From the NCBI RefSeq assembly GCF_050920415.1, contig NZ_CP169309.1: DNA of 64,000 nt, one strand, 5' to 3'. Shown here piece by piece: positions 13,661-21,564 of this stretch. How positions within the stretch are numbered: position 1 is the stretch's first letter; the number at the start of each line of letters is the position of its first letter. The translations under genes were made by a program, and so were the position numbers. Under the pieces are notes generated by a model. It did no database searches, was not told the DNA's origin, and saw nothing but the letters and a program-made list of their open reading frames with translations. Source of the DNA: Escherichia coli (GTDB lineage: Bacteria; Pseudomonadota; Gammaproteobacteria; Enterobacterales; Enterobacteriaceae).

Positions 13661-13760
13661 TTTACGGGATTCTGAAATCCCGTTTTTGCCTGCTTTGTGC
13701 GCGCTTCATATATCACTGCGCGTTTTTTGCTCATTTACGGGATTCGTGAGTCCCGTTTCT
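13661..13760. repeat. two direct copies of a 27-bp hairpin-containing repeat upstream of the ParM-like gene
   Basis: TTTACGGGATTCTGAAATCCCGTTTTT (13661-13687) and TTTACGGGATTCGTGAGTCCCGTTTCT (13734-13760), 22/27 identical, each an ACGGGA/TCCCGT inverted repeat; the second lies inside the 3' end of gene A. Confidence 0.5.
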
Positions 13761-16528
13761 GTCTGTTTTTTGTTTCCGCTGGTCAGGCCACCCCGCAGCA
13801 GGTCTGCTTTGCGGCTGGCGCGTTCAGTGGTTTCACTGATTCTCTGTGCGTGCTCTGCGTCGCGGATGGCGCGCAGCATGTCAGAAAGCACAGTAACGGG
13901 TGTTTTCATGGTGTTCTGGTCCTGCTGAAGTGTGGATGCCAGGCGTGCGGCGGCTTCAGGGTCTGATGCCCCCAGCTGTGCCAGATAGCTGGCGACCGGG
14001 TTATGGCGGATCTCCGTGCTGCTTACGCCATGATTACGGCTCAGGCGCTGCCAGAGCTGCGTGATTCGGCTGTCCGGGCGGGTATCCGGTTTGCGTACAA
14101 TTTCAAATCCCTGCGGTGCAATGATGCTGCCGTCAACGTACAGACTGCCGCCCCGTAACAGGTGCTGCATCTGTTGTTCACCGATATGCAGGCCGAGAGA
14201 TTCAGCAGACTCCCGCCATTCTTTAGCGAGTAATTCGTGGTTATCAGGCAAAGGCCGCTGCTGTTTGCGGCTCTGTGTCCAGCTCTGCATTTCATCACTG
14301 CTGTTTTTTGCCTGTTTGTCACGAAGCGAACGCATCAGCGCCCGGCGTTCGTGCCGTTTCAGTGAGCGCATCCATTCGTTCACTTCAACGCCGTCAGGGA
14401 GCTGCGGCCACGGTGCTGGCCGTTCTTCCGGCTGTTCTGTCCCGTTGTTGTCCGTTTCCTGTGCACGGGGACAGTTATTGCCACGAGTCCAAGGGGCGGC
14501 AGGGCCGCCCTGAAGGTCAAAACCATTTTCGTGGGCGTTGTCTCCCGGTTCTGGTTTACGTCTTACCAGCTTCCAGTTATCCGGATGCGTGCACACACGG
14601 GAGGATTCCCCGATGAGTGGTGACCAGATCCCGTAAATCTGTACGCTCTGTTCGCCGTAATCGTTCAGCTCATCTGCGAGGTCGTAGGCGGTGCGAATCA
14701 GGTAGTCCTTGCGTGGAACAAGCACGCCACCCTGTTTTTCAATGTAGGTGGCAAAACACCCGGCATCGGCGGCAGCGAGTACCGCATCCATTGCATCATC
14801 TTTCAGCCGTTGCGGGCCTTCCGGATTGCGTGCCATCTGGCTGGCAAGGCGGCGCAGTTCACGCCACACCTGACGGGAGGGGATGCCAAAGAACTGGAAC
14901 TGACGGACCCGGTGAAGGCGCGCCCAGCCGATGGCGCGCTCCACGCTCTCGGCCATTGATTTTCCGGTTTCGTGGTCAACGCGTGGCTTGCCCGTTTTCG
15001 GGTCGATGCCATCCACGGCGCGGCTGTCCAGGTTCTTTCCGATGTAGGTGGCGATGTAGCTGGTTGGTGTGCCTTTTGAGCCGTCGACATACTCCGCCTT
15101 AAAACGCGGAGTTATGTCATCGCCCAGCTCGTGGCGGTCCTCCTGAATGGCAATATCGCAGACGTGGGACACGATGGTTTCAATCTCGTCCGGATGTGCA
15201 AAGACCATCATATGCCAGTGCACAGTGCCGTCATGGTGAGGCTCCACCGTGCGGATGCCATACCAGCGCAGGCCGTCGCGGTTCAGTTTTTTGCGGACCG
15301 CCGCAAAAAACGTGTTAACCAGGTAATCGCTGGAGTCGCGCATGGTGGCCCCGTTCCATTTGGGGTTCGGATGACCGTTCTCCGTTGTTGCGTGGTATTT
15401 TGACGGGCAGGTGACGGTCAGAAACACCGCTCTGTCGCCACGGGCTTCGGCCAGAAGTTCCAGTCCCTTCATGGTGGCCATCATTTCTGCCTTACGGTGA
15501 ACCGGGTTACTTACTCCCGCGTAATACACCGTCTCGAGATCAATCGTGAACCCGTCTTCATTTTCCAGCATGAAACTTTTCAGGAAATCGCGTGTTTTCT
15601 CGCGCTGTGCGCGAAACTCGCTTAACGCGTCCTGGCTCAGATAGGGGGATGTTTTTCTGGAAACCAGACAGGCGGCGCGGAGTTGTTCTTCCCGCCACTC
15701 ACAACGTAACAGCCACAGTTTGCGTTTCCACCATTCCGCACAGGTCAAGCGAAGGATTGCGCCCGGCAGCAGCTCCGTGTCCGGTTCGTTCCTCCGGTCT
15801 TTGTCTGTTGTCAGTGCGTCATAATGTGGAGGCATGGCGTGCAGGTGTAACGCCATGCGGGCCAGCATCTGATAAGCCTTCAGGGTTACATCCATGGTCA
15901 GCTCGCCATCAGTCGCGCCAAAGCCATCGCAGAGTTTTTCGAAGGTGCTGCTGAACATCGCCGCCGTCATGGTGGCCAGCGTCTGTATCTGGTGTTTGTT
16001 GAGCTGCGGCAGGTAAAGCAAATCGTCCAGGCGTTCGCGTCCGGCAAGGGAGCGATAACCCGGTGTCAGCCAGCGGTGGTCGGTGCGGTCCAGACGTTCG
16101 AATATTTTGCGCAGGGTTCCGCACGCGTAGCGTTCAGCCTGCCAGCTCTTTTTGCCTTTCCGGCGATCGGCTTCCTGTTTTTTGCGCAGGAAGGAGAGGT
16201 GGCGAATAAGCGGATCGCGCAGATAGGACGGCAGCAGGCGCAGCGAGGCCATGGCTTCATCCACCGCGCCACGTGCCTGTTTTCTGGCGTCTCCTGCCAG
16301 TGTGATGGTTTTGTCCTGTTTTTCCTGTGCGTCCAGGCTTTTATTAATCAGGTTGCCCAGCGGCGTGGCGGAGAACGCCGCATCAGCCATTTCCTGGCGG
16401 CGCTCGTTCTCTGCCCGGTAGGCATCCAGCCAGGAGGAAAGCGCGGATTCAGGAGCGGGGATCCCCGTTCCTTCACGCCCCACTGCGTGGCGCGGTTGTT
16501 GCCAGTCCCTGATGTACTCTGCCGTCAT
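13706..16528 (-). CDS. replication initiation protein A (rolling-circle nicking endonuclease, P2 gpA-like)
   Basis: 940 aa; HUH-type motif region GTVHWHMMVF and tyrosine motif TSYIATYIGK; position between early genes and accessory region. Confidence 0.8.
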   Translation of the reverse strand: MTAEYIRDWQQPRHAVGREGTGIPAPESALSSWLDAYRAENERRQEMADAAFSATPLGNLINKSLDAQEKQDKTITLAGDARKQARGAVDEAMASLRLLPSYLRDPLIRHLSFLRKKQEADRRKGKKSWQAERYACGTLRKIFERLDRTDHRWLTPGYRSLAGRERLDDLLYLPQLNKHQIQTLATMTAAMFSSTFEKLCDGFGATDGELTMDVTLKAYQMLARMALHLHAMPPHYDALTTDKDRRNEPDTELLPGAILRLTCAEWWKRKLWLLRCEWREEQLRAACLVSRKTSPYLSQDALSEFRAQREKTRDFLKSFMLENEDGFTIDLETVYYAGVSNPVHRKAEMMATMKGLELLAEARGDRAVFLTVTCPSKYHATTENGHPNPKWNGATMRDSSDYLVNTFFAAVRKKLNRDGLRWYGIRTVEPHHDGTVHWHMMVFAHPDEIETIVSHVCDIAIQEDRHELGDDITPRFKAEYVDGSKGTPTSYIATYIGKNLDSRAVDGIDPKTGKPRVDHETGKSMAESVERAIGWARLHRVRQFQFFGIPSRQVWRELRRLASQMARNPEGPQRLKDDAMDAVLAAADAGCFATYIEKQGGVLVPRKDYLIRTAYDLADELNDYGEQSVQIYGIWSPLIGESSRVCTHPDNWKLVRRKPEPGDNAHENGFDLQGGPAAPWTRGNNCPRAQETDNNGTEQPEERPAPWPQLPDGVEVNEWMRSLKRHERRALMRSLRDKQAKNSSDEMQSWTQSRKQQRPLPDNHELLAKEWRESAESLGLHIGEQQMQHLLRGGSLYVDGSIIAPQGFEIVRKPDTRPDSRITQLWQRLSRNHGVSSTEIRHNPVASYLAQLGASDPEAAARLASTLQQDQNTMKTPVTVLSDMLRAIRDAEHAQRISETTERASRKADLLRGGLTSGNKKQTETGLTNPVNEQKTRSDI

Positions 16529-18235: not shown

Positions 18236-18586
18236 TTATAAATCAGCCTGTTTAATAAAACTTTGCCTGCGAAGCAGACGATCAACCGTGCGAAGTGCTT
18301 CGTATAATGTGAAATCCTGCCCGAACTGATTGTCGCCACAGCTCAATGCAAAAATGCGGTTTCCGGTAAACGGATTGCGTGGGCATTTGTGGACCACGAT
18401 TCCAGCTTTCTCAATCAGCCAGGCATGCTCGCCGATTTGTTTTACAGCGTGGCCATCCGGTGTTGCGTGCGTCTCGTTCAGGTTATAGCGACTGTTACTA
18501 CGTGATGCACTGGTAGTGACGTGGTGTACATGGCGTTCTACGCCATTACGAAATTTGGAGTATGGATTATTAGCGTTTTTTTTCAT
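18236..18586 (-). CDS. hypothetical early protein
   Basis: 116-aa ORF in the early operon. Confidence 0.45.
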   Translation of the reverse strand: MKKNANNPYSKFRNGVERHVHHVTTSASRSNSRYNLNETHATPDGHAVKQIGEHAWLIEKAGIVVHKCPRNPFTGNRIFALSCGDNQFGQDFTLYEALRTVDRLLRRQSFIKQADL

Positions 18587-18607
18587 GATGGTGCTCTGTT
18601 CATTGTT

Positions 18608-18811
18608 TTAGCTGTTAGCCAAAGCGTCTTTTAACATCGCCACAAGGTTTACTTCAGGCTTTTCCATTTTGGCGCGTTTGGGGCGGATAATAATTCGACC
18701 GTCAGCCAACATCTTTTTGCATGTATTAAGAGGGATACCTGTTATCTCTGCATATTTCTGCAGGGATACATAGGGGGCATTCACATTGATATTGATGGTT
18801 ATACCTGACAT
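18608..18811 (-). CDS. Cox/Apl-like small HTH regulator (putative excisionase/lytic-switch protein)
   Basis: 67 aa; YVSLQKYAEITGIPLNTCKKMLADGRI resembles the HTH segment of P2 Cox-type proteins; second gene of the operon divergent from the repressor. Confidence 0.5.
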   Translation of the reverse strand: MSGITININVNAPYVSLQKYAEITGIPLNTCKKMLADGRIIIRPKRAKMEKPEVNLVAMLKDALANS

Positions 18812-18827
18812 CCCACTAGCCTCCTGA

Positions 18828-19034
18828 TCAGGAAGATTTGTTTTGTTCTTTCTGGGTTAGCTCTAGGCCGCGAAGGAAGATCATGCGCGCCATGTTAGAG
18901 GATGAGCGTTGTTCTTTAGCTGCCATTTCATCAATGACGGCTCGCTCCTCGAGGGACAGCCGAAGTGCCAGTCTTGGACCTGTGGCGGTGTTACGCGGAA
19001 TGCGTGATCTGGTATCGTGAAGAACTTGTTTCAT
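18828..19034 (-). CDS. small putative DNA-binding regulator (first gene of early lytic operon)
   Basis: 68 aa, divergent from the CI-like repressor; Cro-like position. Confidence 0.4.
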   Translation of the reverse strand: MKQVLHDTRSRIPRNTATGPRLALRLSLEERAVIDEMAAKEQRSSSNMARMIFLRGLELTQKEQNKSS

Positions 19035-19075
19035 AGTGGTATATTGTGATCATCTAATAGCTCGTGAAATCATTT

Positions 19076-19093
19076 TGGTATCAAAAAAGATAC
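19076..19093. promoter_or_regulatory. putative operator palindrome in the divergent switch region
   Basis: Perfect inverted repeat GGTATC-AAAAAA-GATACC between the divergent repressor and early-operon starts. Confidence 0.4.
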
Positions 19094-19109
19094 CTGTCAA
19101 GGTTTTTGT

Positions 19110-19514
19110 ATGAAAAATGATATTGGTCAGCGGTTGCGTGAGGAAAGGGAAAGATTGGGACTTAGTCAAGTTGCCATGAGCGACATTGGTGGAGTCAAAA
19201 AGCTAACTCAGCTTAGATATGAGAAAGGAGATAGCTTTCCTGATGCTGCGTATTTGGCAGCGCTGTCTCGTTTTGGCCTTGATGTTCAGTATGTTGTGTT
19301 GGGAATTCACTCACCTGAAACTTATAACGATGATGAGCAGGAGTTGATTACTCGCTTTCGAGCAGCTTCGTTAGATGTGAAAAACGCGGTGATTGGGGCT
19401 TTAAAAGGTGCGATCAGTGAAAAGGAAACTCAGCCATCAGGACGTGAGTTAAATATTTCTGGTGGTAATAACCGTATTGCTGGTCGTGACTATAACGAAA
19501 CTAAGGGTAGGTGA
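19110..19514 (+). CDS. CI-like immunity repressor, HTH XRE family
   Basis: 134 aa; N-terminal IGQRLREERERLGLSQVAMSDIGGVKKLTQLRYEKG is a classic XRE helix-turn-helix; transcribed toward the integrase as in 186. Confidence 0.75.
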   Translation: MKNDIGQRLREERERLGLSQVAMSDIGGVKKLTQLRYEKGDSFPDAAYLAALSRFGLDVQYVVLGIHSPETYNDDEQELITRFRAASLDVKNAVIGALKGAISEKETQPSGRELNISGGNNRIAGRDYNETKGR

Positions 19515-19529
19515 TAGTAGGGAGGTGAC

Positions 19530-20180
19530 ATGGCCGTCAACTCAAACGGTTCAAACAATCGCGTTGCTGGGCGTGATTTTCACGAAAAGAATATTCAGAT
19601 AGAGCGATATGATGGTTCTCATACCGTCAATATCGCAATCCCTTCGAATAATGATGATGACGATCGCCCTTTGCTTAAGGCTCAGCGTAAGGAGCTAAAT
19701 AGTTTGGTTGCTGCTATTGCAGAAGCTAGCAATACTGAAGCGTTTATTATTTGGCAAAAAGTACATGCTGAGATTGGTGTAGCTGGTATTGATGATATGA
19801 CAGTAAATCAATATAAAACAGCGGAGAGTTTTCTGCATGCAATGCTTGAGCGATGTAAAGATCATGATGCCTGTAAGGCTCTTGTAAGTTTATTACTACG
19901 TAACAGTGAAGACTGTGGACTTCGACAAAAACTTCTGCGGTATTGCCATATCAATTTCGGTACAGGACGTTTAAACGATCTTACTCGTTCTCAGTTACAG
20001 TCTGCATTGTCGTGGTTAGAGCAACAATCGGCATCAAGCCACACAGAGAGTTCGACCTTACCAGAAGTCCGACTTCGTGCTTCAGAATTAATCCGACTTT
20101 ATCCAAAAGAAATAATATTCTTTATCTGCGTAGGGGGTTTGGTAGGCGGTGTCATTTCTAGGGTGCTTTTTAATTTGTAA
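19530..20180 (+). CDS. cargo protein, C-terminally membrane-anchored, unknown function
   Basis: 216 aa, GGGAGG Shine-Dalgarno; C-terminal TM helix IIFFICVGGLVGGVISRVLF; N-terminus repeats a peptide motif found at the repressor C-terminus. Confidence 0.55.
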   Translation: MAVNSNGSNNRVAGRDFHEKNIQIERYDGSHTVNIAIPSNNDDDDRPLLKAQRKELNSLVAAIAEASNTEAFIIWQKVHAEIGVAGIDDMTVNQYKTAESFLHAMLERCKDHDACKALVSLLLRNSEDCGLRQKLLRYCHINFGTGRLNDLTRSQLQSALSWLEQQSASSHTESSTLPEVRLRASELIRLYPKEIIFFICVGGLVGGVISRVLFNL

Positions 20181-20209
20181 TCTTACTTGAGCTAAATTGA
20201 GGTAATGAT

Positions 20210-20557
20210 ATGAAAGTAAAAAAGGTTCAACTATTAGTTACTTTTTTATCTATGTTTTCTTTTTCCGCCGTCGCAATGCCTTTTAAAACTATTGAACGTG
20301 AGAGTTTCAATGGGGTATGGCCATTTAATACTGATGAGGTTCAATTACAGTGTCTTGATGGTAATCCTTATGTGATGAATTTTGACGATAATAAGTTATA
20401 TGCACTTACAGGTTTGGCTCGAATAAAAGGTAAAACATTTGGTGCGTTACCGTTAGATAACAATAATCCATTTTGGCTAGATAATGATGCCGCCCCAGGG
20501 TTAAAAAAGAGTCTGGGGGATGTCACTAAGGCTGCATTTGATTTATGTGATAAGTAA
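20210..20557 (+). CDS. cargo protein, secreted/periplasmic, unknown function
   Basis: 115 aa with signal peptide MKVKKVQLLVTFLSMFSFSAVA, no lipobox, two Cys in mature part; strongly AT-rich coding sequence. Confidence 0.6.
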   Translation: MKVKKVQLLVTFLSMFSFSAVAMPFKTIERESFNGVWPFNTDEVQLQCLDGNPYVMNFDDNKLYALTGLARIKGKTFGALPLDNNNPFWLDNDAAPGLKKSLGDVTKAAFDLCDK

Positions 20558-20562
20558 CTAAA

Positions 20563-21564
20563 ATGTCGGTTCGTAAGATTCCATCAGGTAAATGGCTTTG
20601 CGAATGTTATCCCTACGGGGCATCGGGAAAACGCATTCGTAAACAGTTTGCGACAAAAAGTGAGGCGCTCTCTTATGAGCGCCGTTTAATGAATAGTAGA
20701 GTTGGAGACGAGTTTCAAGATGGTTCTGGTCCTCGTCTTTCTGAGTTGATTGCTCGTTGGTTTGAGATGTACGGTAAAACCTTGTCCTCTGGTGCAGAGC
20801 GCAAAGTCAAACTTGAGGCGATTTGTTCCAGGCTGGGAGATCCATTTGCTTCTCAGTTTGACAAAAATATGTTTGCTACTTATCGGGAAAGAAGGCTATC
20901 AGGAGAATGGAATCCCAAGGGGAAGAAAAAACTTAGTGAAGCAACCGTTAATCGCGAGCAGTCATATCTACATGCTGTTTTTGCCGAACTGAAGCGCCTT
21001 GGGGAGTGGTCTGGTGAAAACCCCCTGACTGGTATTCGCAAGTTTCGTGAGGAAGAAAAGGAACTGGCGTTTCTGTATGTAGATGAGATTGAACGCCTTC
21101 TGATTGCGTGTGATGAGTCACGGAATAAAGATTTGGGGGTTGTTGTCCGTATTGGGCTTGCGACTGGTGCTCGGTGGAGTGAAGCAGAAGGATTAAAGCA
21201 ATCTCAAGTACTGCCCGGTCGAATCACATTTGTTAAAACTAAAGGAAAGAAGAACCGCACTGTACCGATTTCACCTCAATTGCAGGCTATGCTTCCTAAA
21301 AAACGAGGAGCGCTATTTTCACCATGTTATGAGGCTTTTGACGCTGCAATTAAGAGAGCGAAGATCGAGCTTCCTGATGGGCAATTAACTCATGTGCTAC
21401 GTCACACGTTTGCCAGTCATTTTATGATGCGGGGCGGAAATATTCTTGTGTTGCAAAAAATACTGGGGCATAGCGATATAAAAATGACTATGCGTTATGC
21501 GCATTTTGCTCCAGGTCATTTAGAGGCTGCTGTTGAATTGAACCCTTTTGACAATAGAGGGTAA
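20563..21564 (+). CDS. int: prophage integrase (tyrosine recombinase)
   Basis: 333 aa; catalytic motifs HVLRHTFASHF and TMRYAH; last prophage gene before the tRNA fragment. Confidence 0.85.
   Translation: MSVRKIPSGKWLCECYPYGASGKRIRKQFATKSEALSYERRLMNSRVGDEFQDGSGPRLSELIARWFEMYGKTLSSGAERKVKLEAICSRLGDPFASQFDKNMFATYRERRLSGEWNPKGKKKLSEATVNREQSYLHAVFAELKRLGEWSGENPLTGIRKFREEEKELAFLYVDEIERLLIACDESRNKDLGVVVRIGLATGARWSEAEGLKQSQVLPGRITFVKTKGKKNRTVPISPQLQAMLPKKRGALFSPCYEAFDAAIKRAKIELPDGQLTHVLRHTFASHFMMRGGNILVLQKILGHSDIKMTMRYAHFAPGHLEAAVELNPFDNRG

Follow-up and report, generated by a model that had tools for sequence, protein, structure and literature searches.

The window analysed here is a 64,000-nt stretch of Escherichia coli DNA, and its first 21.6 kb are one end of a P2-like (Peduoviridae) prophage adjoining yecA. 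Leftward early genes and a presumed rightward lysogenic operon (Table 1) are separated by only 75 bp, 19035-19109, counted from the minus-strand start at 19034 to the plus-strand start at 19110, in agreement with the initial annotation. Since the integrase end directly abuts yecA, no tRNA attachment site is used here by the P2-like element; a search for tRNA genes in all 64,000 nt of the window found none. Large ORFs, assumed to be prophage late genes, run down to about position 770 at the left end of the window, and the element therefore probably extends past that end. Escherichia phage 520873 (Xuanwuvirus, NC_049344) matches the region 18600-19530 with 98.6% identity. Prophages of this type are present in 523 of 5426 complete E. 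coli genomes (~10%), with O157:H7 EDL933 and O121, O145, O103 and O111 strains among the carriers.

Table 1. Genes and control elements at the switch of the prophage, in window coordinates; promoters, ribosome-binding site and operator are predictions.
Feature	Position	Strand	Basis or remark
gpA replication protein	13706-16528	-	ORFs and Pfam
DUF4761 protein	between gpA and the Cox-like gene	-	
67-aa Cox-like excisionase/repressor, second early gene	18608-18811	-	PHROG 575, E = 1.2e-27
68-aa Arc-like ribbon-helix-helix protein, first early gene	18828-19034	-	PHROG 3431 'Arc-like repressor', E = 9.8e-29, full length
Rightward maintenance promoter (Pc-like), inferred; extended -10 TGgTATATT	19037-19045	+	conserved block
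Leftward early promoter, -10 CAAAAT	19072-19077	-	promoter scan
Inverted repeat GGTATC-AAAAAA-GATACC, proposed single operator	19077-19094		sequence and relatives
Leftward early promoter (Pe-like), -35 TTGACA, directly abutting the repeat	19095-19100	-	promoter scan
Likely repressor ribosome-binding site AAGG, overlapping the -35 of the opposite promoter	19099-19102	+	7 nt before the ATG at 19110
134-aa helix-turn-helix immunity repressor	19110-19514	+	PHROG 8, AlphaFold, Foldseek
Rest of the presumed lysogenic operon: 216-aa membrane-anchored ORF, DUF2511 protein, P2-type integrase	19530-21564	+	Pfam; PHROG 5825, 2950
P2-type integrase	20563-21564	+	

In the RefSeq annotations of EDL933, SW071611 and M8, a 45-aa plus-strand 'hypothetical protein' is placed at about 18883-19020 and the minus-strand Arc-like gene is omitted. 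The Arc-like ORF is kept at 40% identity in the prophage of E. coli FDAARGOS_943 (locus L004), and the RefSeq call lying over it is probably wrong; with that call, the switch region seems to measure about 300 bp. A scan for intrinsic terminators found none.

The protein encoded to the right of the gap matches helix-turn-helix (HTH) families of Pfam below their curated cutoffs (HTH_31, 23.2 bits with a cutoff of 27; HTH_3, 19.1 bits with a cutoff of 23) and PHROG 8, 'transcriptional regulator', with E = 2.5e-14. Its AlphaFold model, with pLDDT > 90 over residues 11-60, comprises a five-helix HTH domain (residues 5-64; helices 5-15, 20-27, 31-39, 46-53 and 59-64), a pair of additional helices (74-103), possibly a dimerisation element, and a disordered tail (106-134). 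The best Foldseek matches were to the DNA-binding domain of P22 c2 on its operator (3jxb and 2r1j; TM 0.80-0.82, rmsd 1.6 A over 63 residues); SinR, controller proteins (C.BclI) and the 434 repressor were also matched, and P2 C ranked lower. Sequence comparison with the PDB gave as best match a P22 c2/434-type N-terminal domain (E = 0.011, identity ~27%). No S24 peptidase domain was matched by Pfam in the 134-aa protein, which ends in the disordered tail.

This tail is closed by a motif, (I/V)x(V/G)xGxxN(R/K)(I/V/T)AGRD(Y/F)xE (window 19470-19508), and the next ORF, coding for the 216-aa protein with a C-terminal membrane helix, opens with the same motif (19557-19590). The tail motif is also found in L002, L003, L004, L009, L010 and L025, and its pairing between proteins recurs in Arsenophonus (3 copies), Pseudomonas toyotomiensis and P. 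carbonaria (4 copies, distributed over three adjacent proteins). One possibility is that the motif common to the repressor tail and the membrane-anchored protein couples the repressor to a membrane partner, with induction by a route other than SOS.

The gap between the divergent genes had been noted for a perfect 18-bp palindrome. The sequence in question, GGTATCAAAAAAGATACC, is indeed present at 19077-19094, but only its 6-bp arms are symmetric: the A6 spacer is not self-complementary, and the element is therefore an interrupted inverted repeat and not a perfect palindrome. The exact GGTATC-N6-GATACC pattern has one copy in the 64 kb. Judged by its bare sequence, the repeat is unremarkable and no rarer than chance: with arms of at least 6 bp and a spacer of 2-8 nt as the criterion, a comparable inverted repeat occurred in 502 of 5000 dinucleotide shuffles of the 75 bp (~10%) and in 97 of the 853 75-bp tiles of the window (11%).

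When two mismatches to GGTATC-N6-GATACC were allowed, 6 matches in total were obtained, compared with 1.23 expected from dinucleotide shuffles. One of them, at 18722-18739 inside the Cox-like gene, was considered as a second operator and rejected: it is altered in L002, which has the same repressor, and identical in L003, which has a different one, and thus tracks the Cox-like gene, not the repressor. Four more lie in host DNA (30452, 40757, 51862 and 61512). GGT-ATC and GAT-ACC are favoured codon pairs in E. coli and are absent from the dinucleotide-shuffle model; these four matches probably reflect chance or codon usage rather than extra operators. Shorter elements related to the repeat were also considered. 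Copies of TGGTAT(C/A) occur at 19010-19016 and 19038-19044, and TCATnnTGGTAT forms a direct repeat at 19031 and 19070; these direct copies are not conserved along with the repressor. The copy at 19010 was rejected as an operator, reading GGTGTC in L002 despite the same repressor, and the copy at 19038 was rejected as a specificity site, being part of a block that is kept in all immunity types and that we read as a promoter. The second TCAT copy is absent from L003.

The leftward TTGACA-N17-CAAAAT, with 10 of 12 consensus matches, was the only sigma-70 promoter match of our scan in 18500-19700, and the repeat fills its 17-nt spacer, the outermost base of the repeat being the first base of the -10. 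Relatives have cAnAAT-like hexamers (CACAAT, TAAAGT, CATAAT) at the equivalent position, 17-18 nt from the -35. Leftward transcription would begin near 19065. For the opposite direction, a CATA(G/A)TG(G/A/T)TATATTGTGATC block is kept in E. coli, Kosakonia, Yersinia and Arsenophonus variants whatever their immunity type, and we infer that the extended -10 at 19037-19045 is the repressor's own promoter; it shows no recognisable -35, and the -35/-10 scan of 18500-19700 returned no rightward match. Placing the rightward start near 19052 gives a predicted overlap of about 14 nt between the opposing transcripts, the kind of layout annotated for Pe/Pc of P2 and pR/pL of 186. The description of the region as a divergent switch is thus apt for the genes, whereas the promoters appear to lie face to face, with overlapping transcripts, and not back to back. 

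The arrangement of the repressor's likely ribosome-binding site is found again before the GTG start of the type-3 variant. In the type-2 variant (L003 1745-1775; L026-L030, Yersinia), the early-promoter -35 TTGACA overlaps the repressor start codon (ATGTCAA) and the left repeat arm (AGGGAA or AGGAA) is at the same time the only Shine-Dalgarno-like sequence, so that signals for repressor binding and for translation initiation are superimposed. Control of the switch by SOS was considered and rejected when a search for LexA boxes near the switch was negative; two weak CTGT-N8-ACAG matches elsewhere are no more than expected by chance. Sites of the Arc-like or Cox-like protein would most plausibly lie in the conserved block that covers the rightward promoter, and a search of this block at 19031-19056 for a site of the Arc-like protein gave no convincing symmetric or helically phased repeat.

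Natural swaps among E. coli prophages allowed us to follow the repeat separately from its neighbours (identities are given relative to the window proteins and DNA). At L003 (E. coli M8), the Arc-like and Cox-like proteins are 94% and 98.5% identical, the repressor is 48% identical, and the repeat reads tAGGGAAC-AAAA-cTTCCTA, adjoining TGTCAA. Two further loci, L106 and L109, combine an Arc-like protein of 94-97% identity with a third repressor type and with GAGATC-AATA-GATCTC inside TTGACT-18-CATAAT. The converse is found in L002, L110 and L113, where the Arc-like protein has drifted to 88-91% and the flanks are altered, and where a window-type repressor is accompanied by a repeat identical to that of the window. 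At L004, with an Arc-like protein at 40% and a repressor at 57%, the repeat is GGTGTG-gaaaaa-CACACC, changed in both arms, and the recognition helix reads VKKWTQIKYEKG as opposed to VKKLTQLRYEKG in the window. Taken together, the swaps and the converse loci indicate that inheritance of the repeat follows the repressor, independently of the Arc-like and Cox-like proteins. Three repeat types are found at the same place beside Arc-like proteins that are 94-100% identical, both arms change together in heteroimmune variants, and among E. coli prophages at least four repeats can be told apart, each paired with its own repressor type.

The sliding identity between L003 and the window shows how far the exchanged DNA extends: up to about 19050 it is 94-100%, it falls to about 45% over 19100-19450, and it returns to 74-94% after 19450. 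The cassette starts just left of the repeat and spans the DNA-binding and helical region of the repressor; the exchanged unit therefore consists of the repeat and the DNA-binding part of the repressor. The motif in the repressor tail marks the right boundary of the exchanged immunity cassette.

These swaps bear directly on two other candidates for the protein bound at the repeat. Ribbon-helix-helix proteins such as P22 Arc bind symmetric operators overlapping promoters, and the Arc-like gene is the first one downstream of the early promoter, so the repeat could be imagined as a site of the Arc-like (or Cox-like) protein, either autoregulating the early promoter or acting as a Cro equivalent. 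Such a site is hard to reconcile with three repeats accompanying nearly the same Arc-like (94-100%) and Cox-like (98.5%) proteins, with the persistence of one repeat beside Arc-like proteins diverged to 88-91%, or with the repeat-plus-TGTCAA layout being kept next to a Ner/Cro-like partner in Pseudomonas, Acinetobacter and Thiothrix, and we regard it as highly unlikely. A host DNA-binding protein (nucleoid-associated or a global regulator) was considered, since IHF of the host is employed at P2-like switches and attachment sites (P2 annotation). Its site should be constant within one host, whereas the repeats of E. coli prophages, at least four in number, are matched to the repressors; we give this proposal next to no weight.

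Two variants found among these prophages deserve mention. Among about 40 loci of type 1, the type of the window, an arm base change was seen in a single one, L081 (IMGVR_UViG_2529292728_000034), whose right arm reads GATATC for GATACC; it could be an operator mutation or a sequencing error. In L106 (IMGVR_UViG_2778261154_000006), two repressor genes stand in tandem some 500 bp upstream of the Arc-like gene (1501-1704), on the strand opposite to it; the first is of type 3, and the second is a near-complete gene of type 1. The type-3 gene has its own palindrome at the early promoter, and the type-1 gene is preceded by the right half only of the type-1 operator (AAGATACC-TGTCAAGG), a half-operator that, on the predicted operator limits, places the recombination joint inside the operator. 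The tandem repressors may give double immunity.

Beyond E. coli, a scan with one genome per species yielded 60 loci encoding relatives of the repressor. For the symmetry analysis we took 21 distinct gamma- and beta-proteobacterial loci in which the conserved IGxRLREER motif is preceded by an exact TGTCAA. Of the 9 pairs in the 18-mer adjoining this TGTCAA, a mean of 6.1 are symmetric in these loci, compared with 3.0 +/- 0.25 in shuffles, and at least 6 symmetric pairs are present in 14 of the 21, compared with 3.6% of 83 control TGTCAA sites. The repeats themselves differ from genus to genus: GGTATTC-gttt-GAATACC in Kosakonia, GGTAAC-aaattt-GTTACC in Thiothrix, GGTACGG-atat-CCGTACC and GGTCCCA-ataa-TGGGACC in Pseudomonas, and GGTGCAGA-aa-TCTGCACC in Achromobacter. 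Several of the homologous sites are full palindromes with 2-nt centres. 

The frequency of equal repeats in shuffles (~10%) and in 75-bp tiles (11%) would, taken alone, be compatible with a chance inverted repeat in A+T-rich intergenic DNA that serves as a mere promoter spacer. Three observations speak strongly enough to the contrary for us to hold it extremely improbable: the repeat stays the same to the base where its flanks have changed, a sequence that is different yet again symmetric takes its place in heteroimmune relatives, and symmetry is strongly enriched beside TGTCAA in the 21 distinct loci.

The half-sites also co-vary with the part of the repressor expected to read them. The helix TTKKSQIDYE is paired with the half-site (A/G)GTAAC in both Acinetobacter and Thiothrix, and the helix S(K/R)RS.I.WEKG with GTGCAG. 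Distances between half-sites correlate with distances between recognition helices (Mantel r = 0.32, p = 0.0004), also when the rest of the domain is controlled for (partial r = 0.29, p = 0.0006), with the caveat that the loci are related, so that these permutation p-values are optimistic and overstate independence; the rest of the domain alone gave r = 0.135.

An RNA element has to be weighed at this point as well. If the rightward promoter lies at 19037-19045, the repeat would be transcribed into the repressor's 5' leader, where its arms could pair as a 6-bp hairpin that affects translation or stability of the mRNA. It lies 5 nt upstream of the AAGG ribosome-binding site, the hairpin is present in the minimum-energy fold of the leader, and compensatory arm changes would be expected of an RNA stem too. 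The leader, however, folds no better than shuffles (z = -1.14; 24 of 200 do equally well), and its centroid fold lacks the hairpin. A correlation of the arms with the recognition helix across distant genera is not predicted by an RNA stem, and in the swaps the element and the DNA-binding domain move as one unit. Palindromes with 2-nt centres, typical of dimer sites, also count against a hairpin, albeit weakly, as one pair can open to give a 4-nt loop. On balance, we find a role as RNA very unlikely.

The divergent neighbour of the repressor gene varies in the wider family. It is a Ner/Cro-like protein in the Pseudomonas, Acinetobacter and Thiothrix loci, in which the repeat-plus-TGTCAA layout is kept, and an Arc-like protein in Kosakonia; such neighbours would fit a repressor/anti-repressor switch. 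Four loci, L029, L031, L039 and L041 (Acinetobacter, Halomonas and Gemmobacter), encode longer relatives of the repressor, 217-255 aa, with C-terminal regions that, read by eye, are putative LexA/CI-type S24 peptidase domains. The symmetric repeat adjoining TGTCAA is kept in L029 and L039 and is weak in L031 and L041. If that reading of the C-terminal regions is true, the same DNA-binding module occurs in SOS-cleavable and non-cleavable repressors.

The initial annotation had proposed the repeat as a candidate operator through which a CI-like repressor controls the lysis-lysogeny decision. This proposal gains support from the position of the repeat in the promoter, its co-inheritance with the repressor, the paired changes of its arms and the correlation between half-site and recognition helix. 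We therefore predict, with a probability of roughly 80%, that GGTATCAAAAAAGATACC is the single operator of a P22-c2-like HTH immunity repressor that blocks the early promoter. A repressor dimer would bind both 6-bp half-sites, which are spaced 12 bp from centre to centre. Because the site fills the spacer between the -35 and -10 of the strong leftward early promoter, the bound repressor would shut out RNA polymerase and so silence the Arc-like and Cox-like genes and the replication operon. The repressor's own weak promoter, the extended -10 element, would fire rightward toward the early promoter, and closing of the latter would relieve the repressor/integrase operon of interference from head-on transcription. 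The operator would also lie at about +25 to +42 of the repressor leader, where its occupation could damp repressor synthesis at high concentration.

In the literature searched, we met neither the operator sequence nor any work on this switch or on the CP-933T repressor. The repeat is thus very probably a new, uncharacterised example of a very familiar phage switch element, a repressor acting on a promoter, and as a textbook case of that kind it should not surprise a specialist. The same early genes occur in combination with at least three or four circulating heteroimmune cassettes, which offers a ready-made immunity typing of these prophages, and the matched repressor/operator pairs could be used as orthogonal genetic parts.

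Among characterised repressors, P22 c2 and 434 cI are the closest in the fold of the DNA-binding domain, and they share with the system proposed here a two-fold symmetric operator. The P22 c2 operator is two-fold symmetric, with outer half-sites that are contacted and a central spacer. Identity is only ~27%, however, and the window protein is without the S24 autocleavage domain; one operator is found here, in contrast to the tripartite OR/OL arrays of these phages.

With P2, the prophage shares its gene order: integrase and repressor, followed by an early operon that diverges from them and includes a Cox-like gene and gpA. The layout of the control region appears to be shared too: the P2 annotation (Pe, O1, Pc) has an early -35 adjoining the repressor start codon, an operator in the promoter core and a maintenance promoter adjoining the first early gene. 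Two converging promoters are the rule for P2-like switches (PMC1904263). Similarity between P2 C and the window repressor is weak and restricted to the HTH (33% over 46 residues, pairwise BLASTP E = 5e-5). P2-type C proteins are about 100 aa long and bind a pair of direct repeats (PMC1904263; PMC2995052). The window repressor, in contrast, has 134 aa where P2 C has 99, with extra helices and a tail, and its proposed site is a single inverted repeat; the gap is 75 bp here and 114 bp in P2, and an extra Arc-like gene precedes the Cox-like gene. BLASTP found no similarity of the Cox-like protein to P2 Cox or 186 Apl.

As predicted here, phage 186 has face-to-face lytic and lysogenic promoters and a repressor acting on inverted repeats at the lytic promoter (annotation; PMC1904263). 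Its CI protein differs in length (192 aa) and shows no BLASTP similarity to the window repressor in the HTH region. It uses three pR sites together with the distal FL and FR sites, as compared with a single perfect site in our 64 kb, and a non-exhaustive look at the early operon of the window identified no CII-like gene. More generally, the characterised switches of P2, 186 and lambda have two or more sites, and one was found here. Phage 520873 shares the three switch genes, which its record labels transcriptional regulator, Arc-like repressor and Cox-like excisionase; it is represented by an automatically annotated sequence record, and we found no functional study of its switch.

Two classes of P2-like switches are recognised, P2 C with direct repeats and 186 CI, and other heterogeneous regulatory regions have been noted (PMC3448106). 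By the comparisons above, the switch of the window appears to belong to neither of these two classes. It is a tentative and rather doubtful suggestion that it represents a third class of P2-like immunity switch, defined by a single inverted-repeat operator and three small regulators (the HTH repressor, the Arc-like protein in the role of Cro, and the Cox-like excisionase as a separate protein), with immunity specificity exchanged as a cassette of about 380 bp, which would be bounded by the operator on the left and the disordered-tail motif NNRIAGRDYNE on the right. A third class of this kind would extend the classification of P2-like switches beyond the C/Cox and CI/Apl types (PMC3448106).
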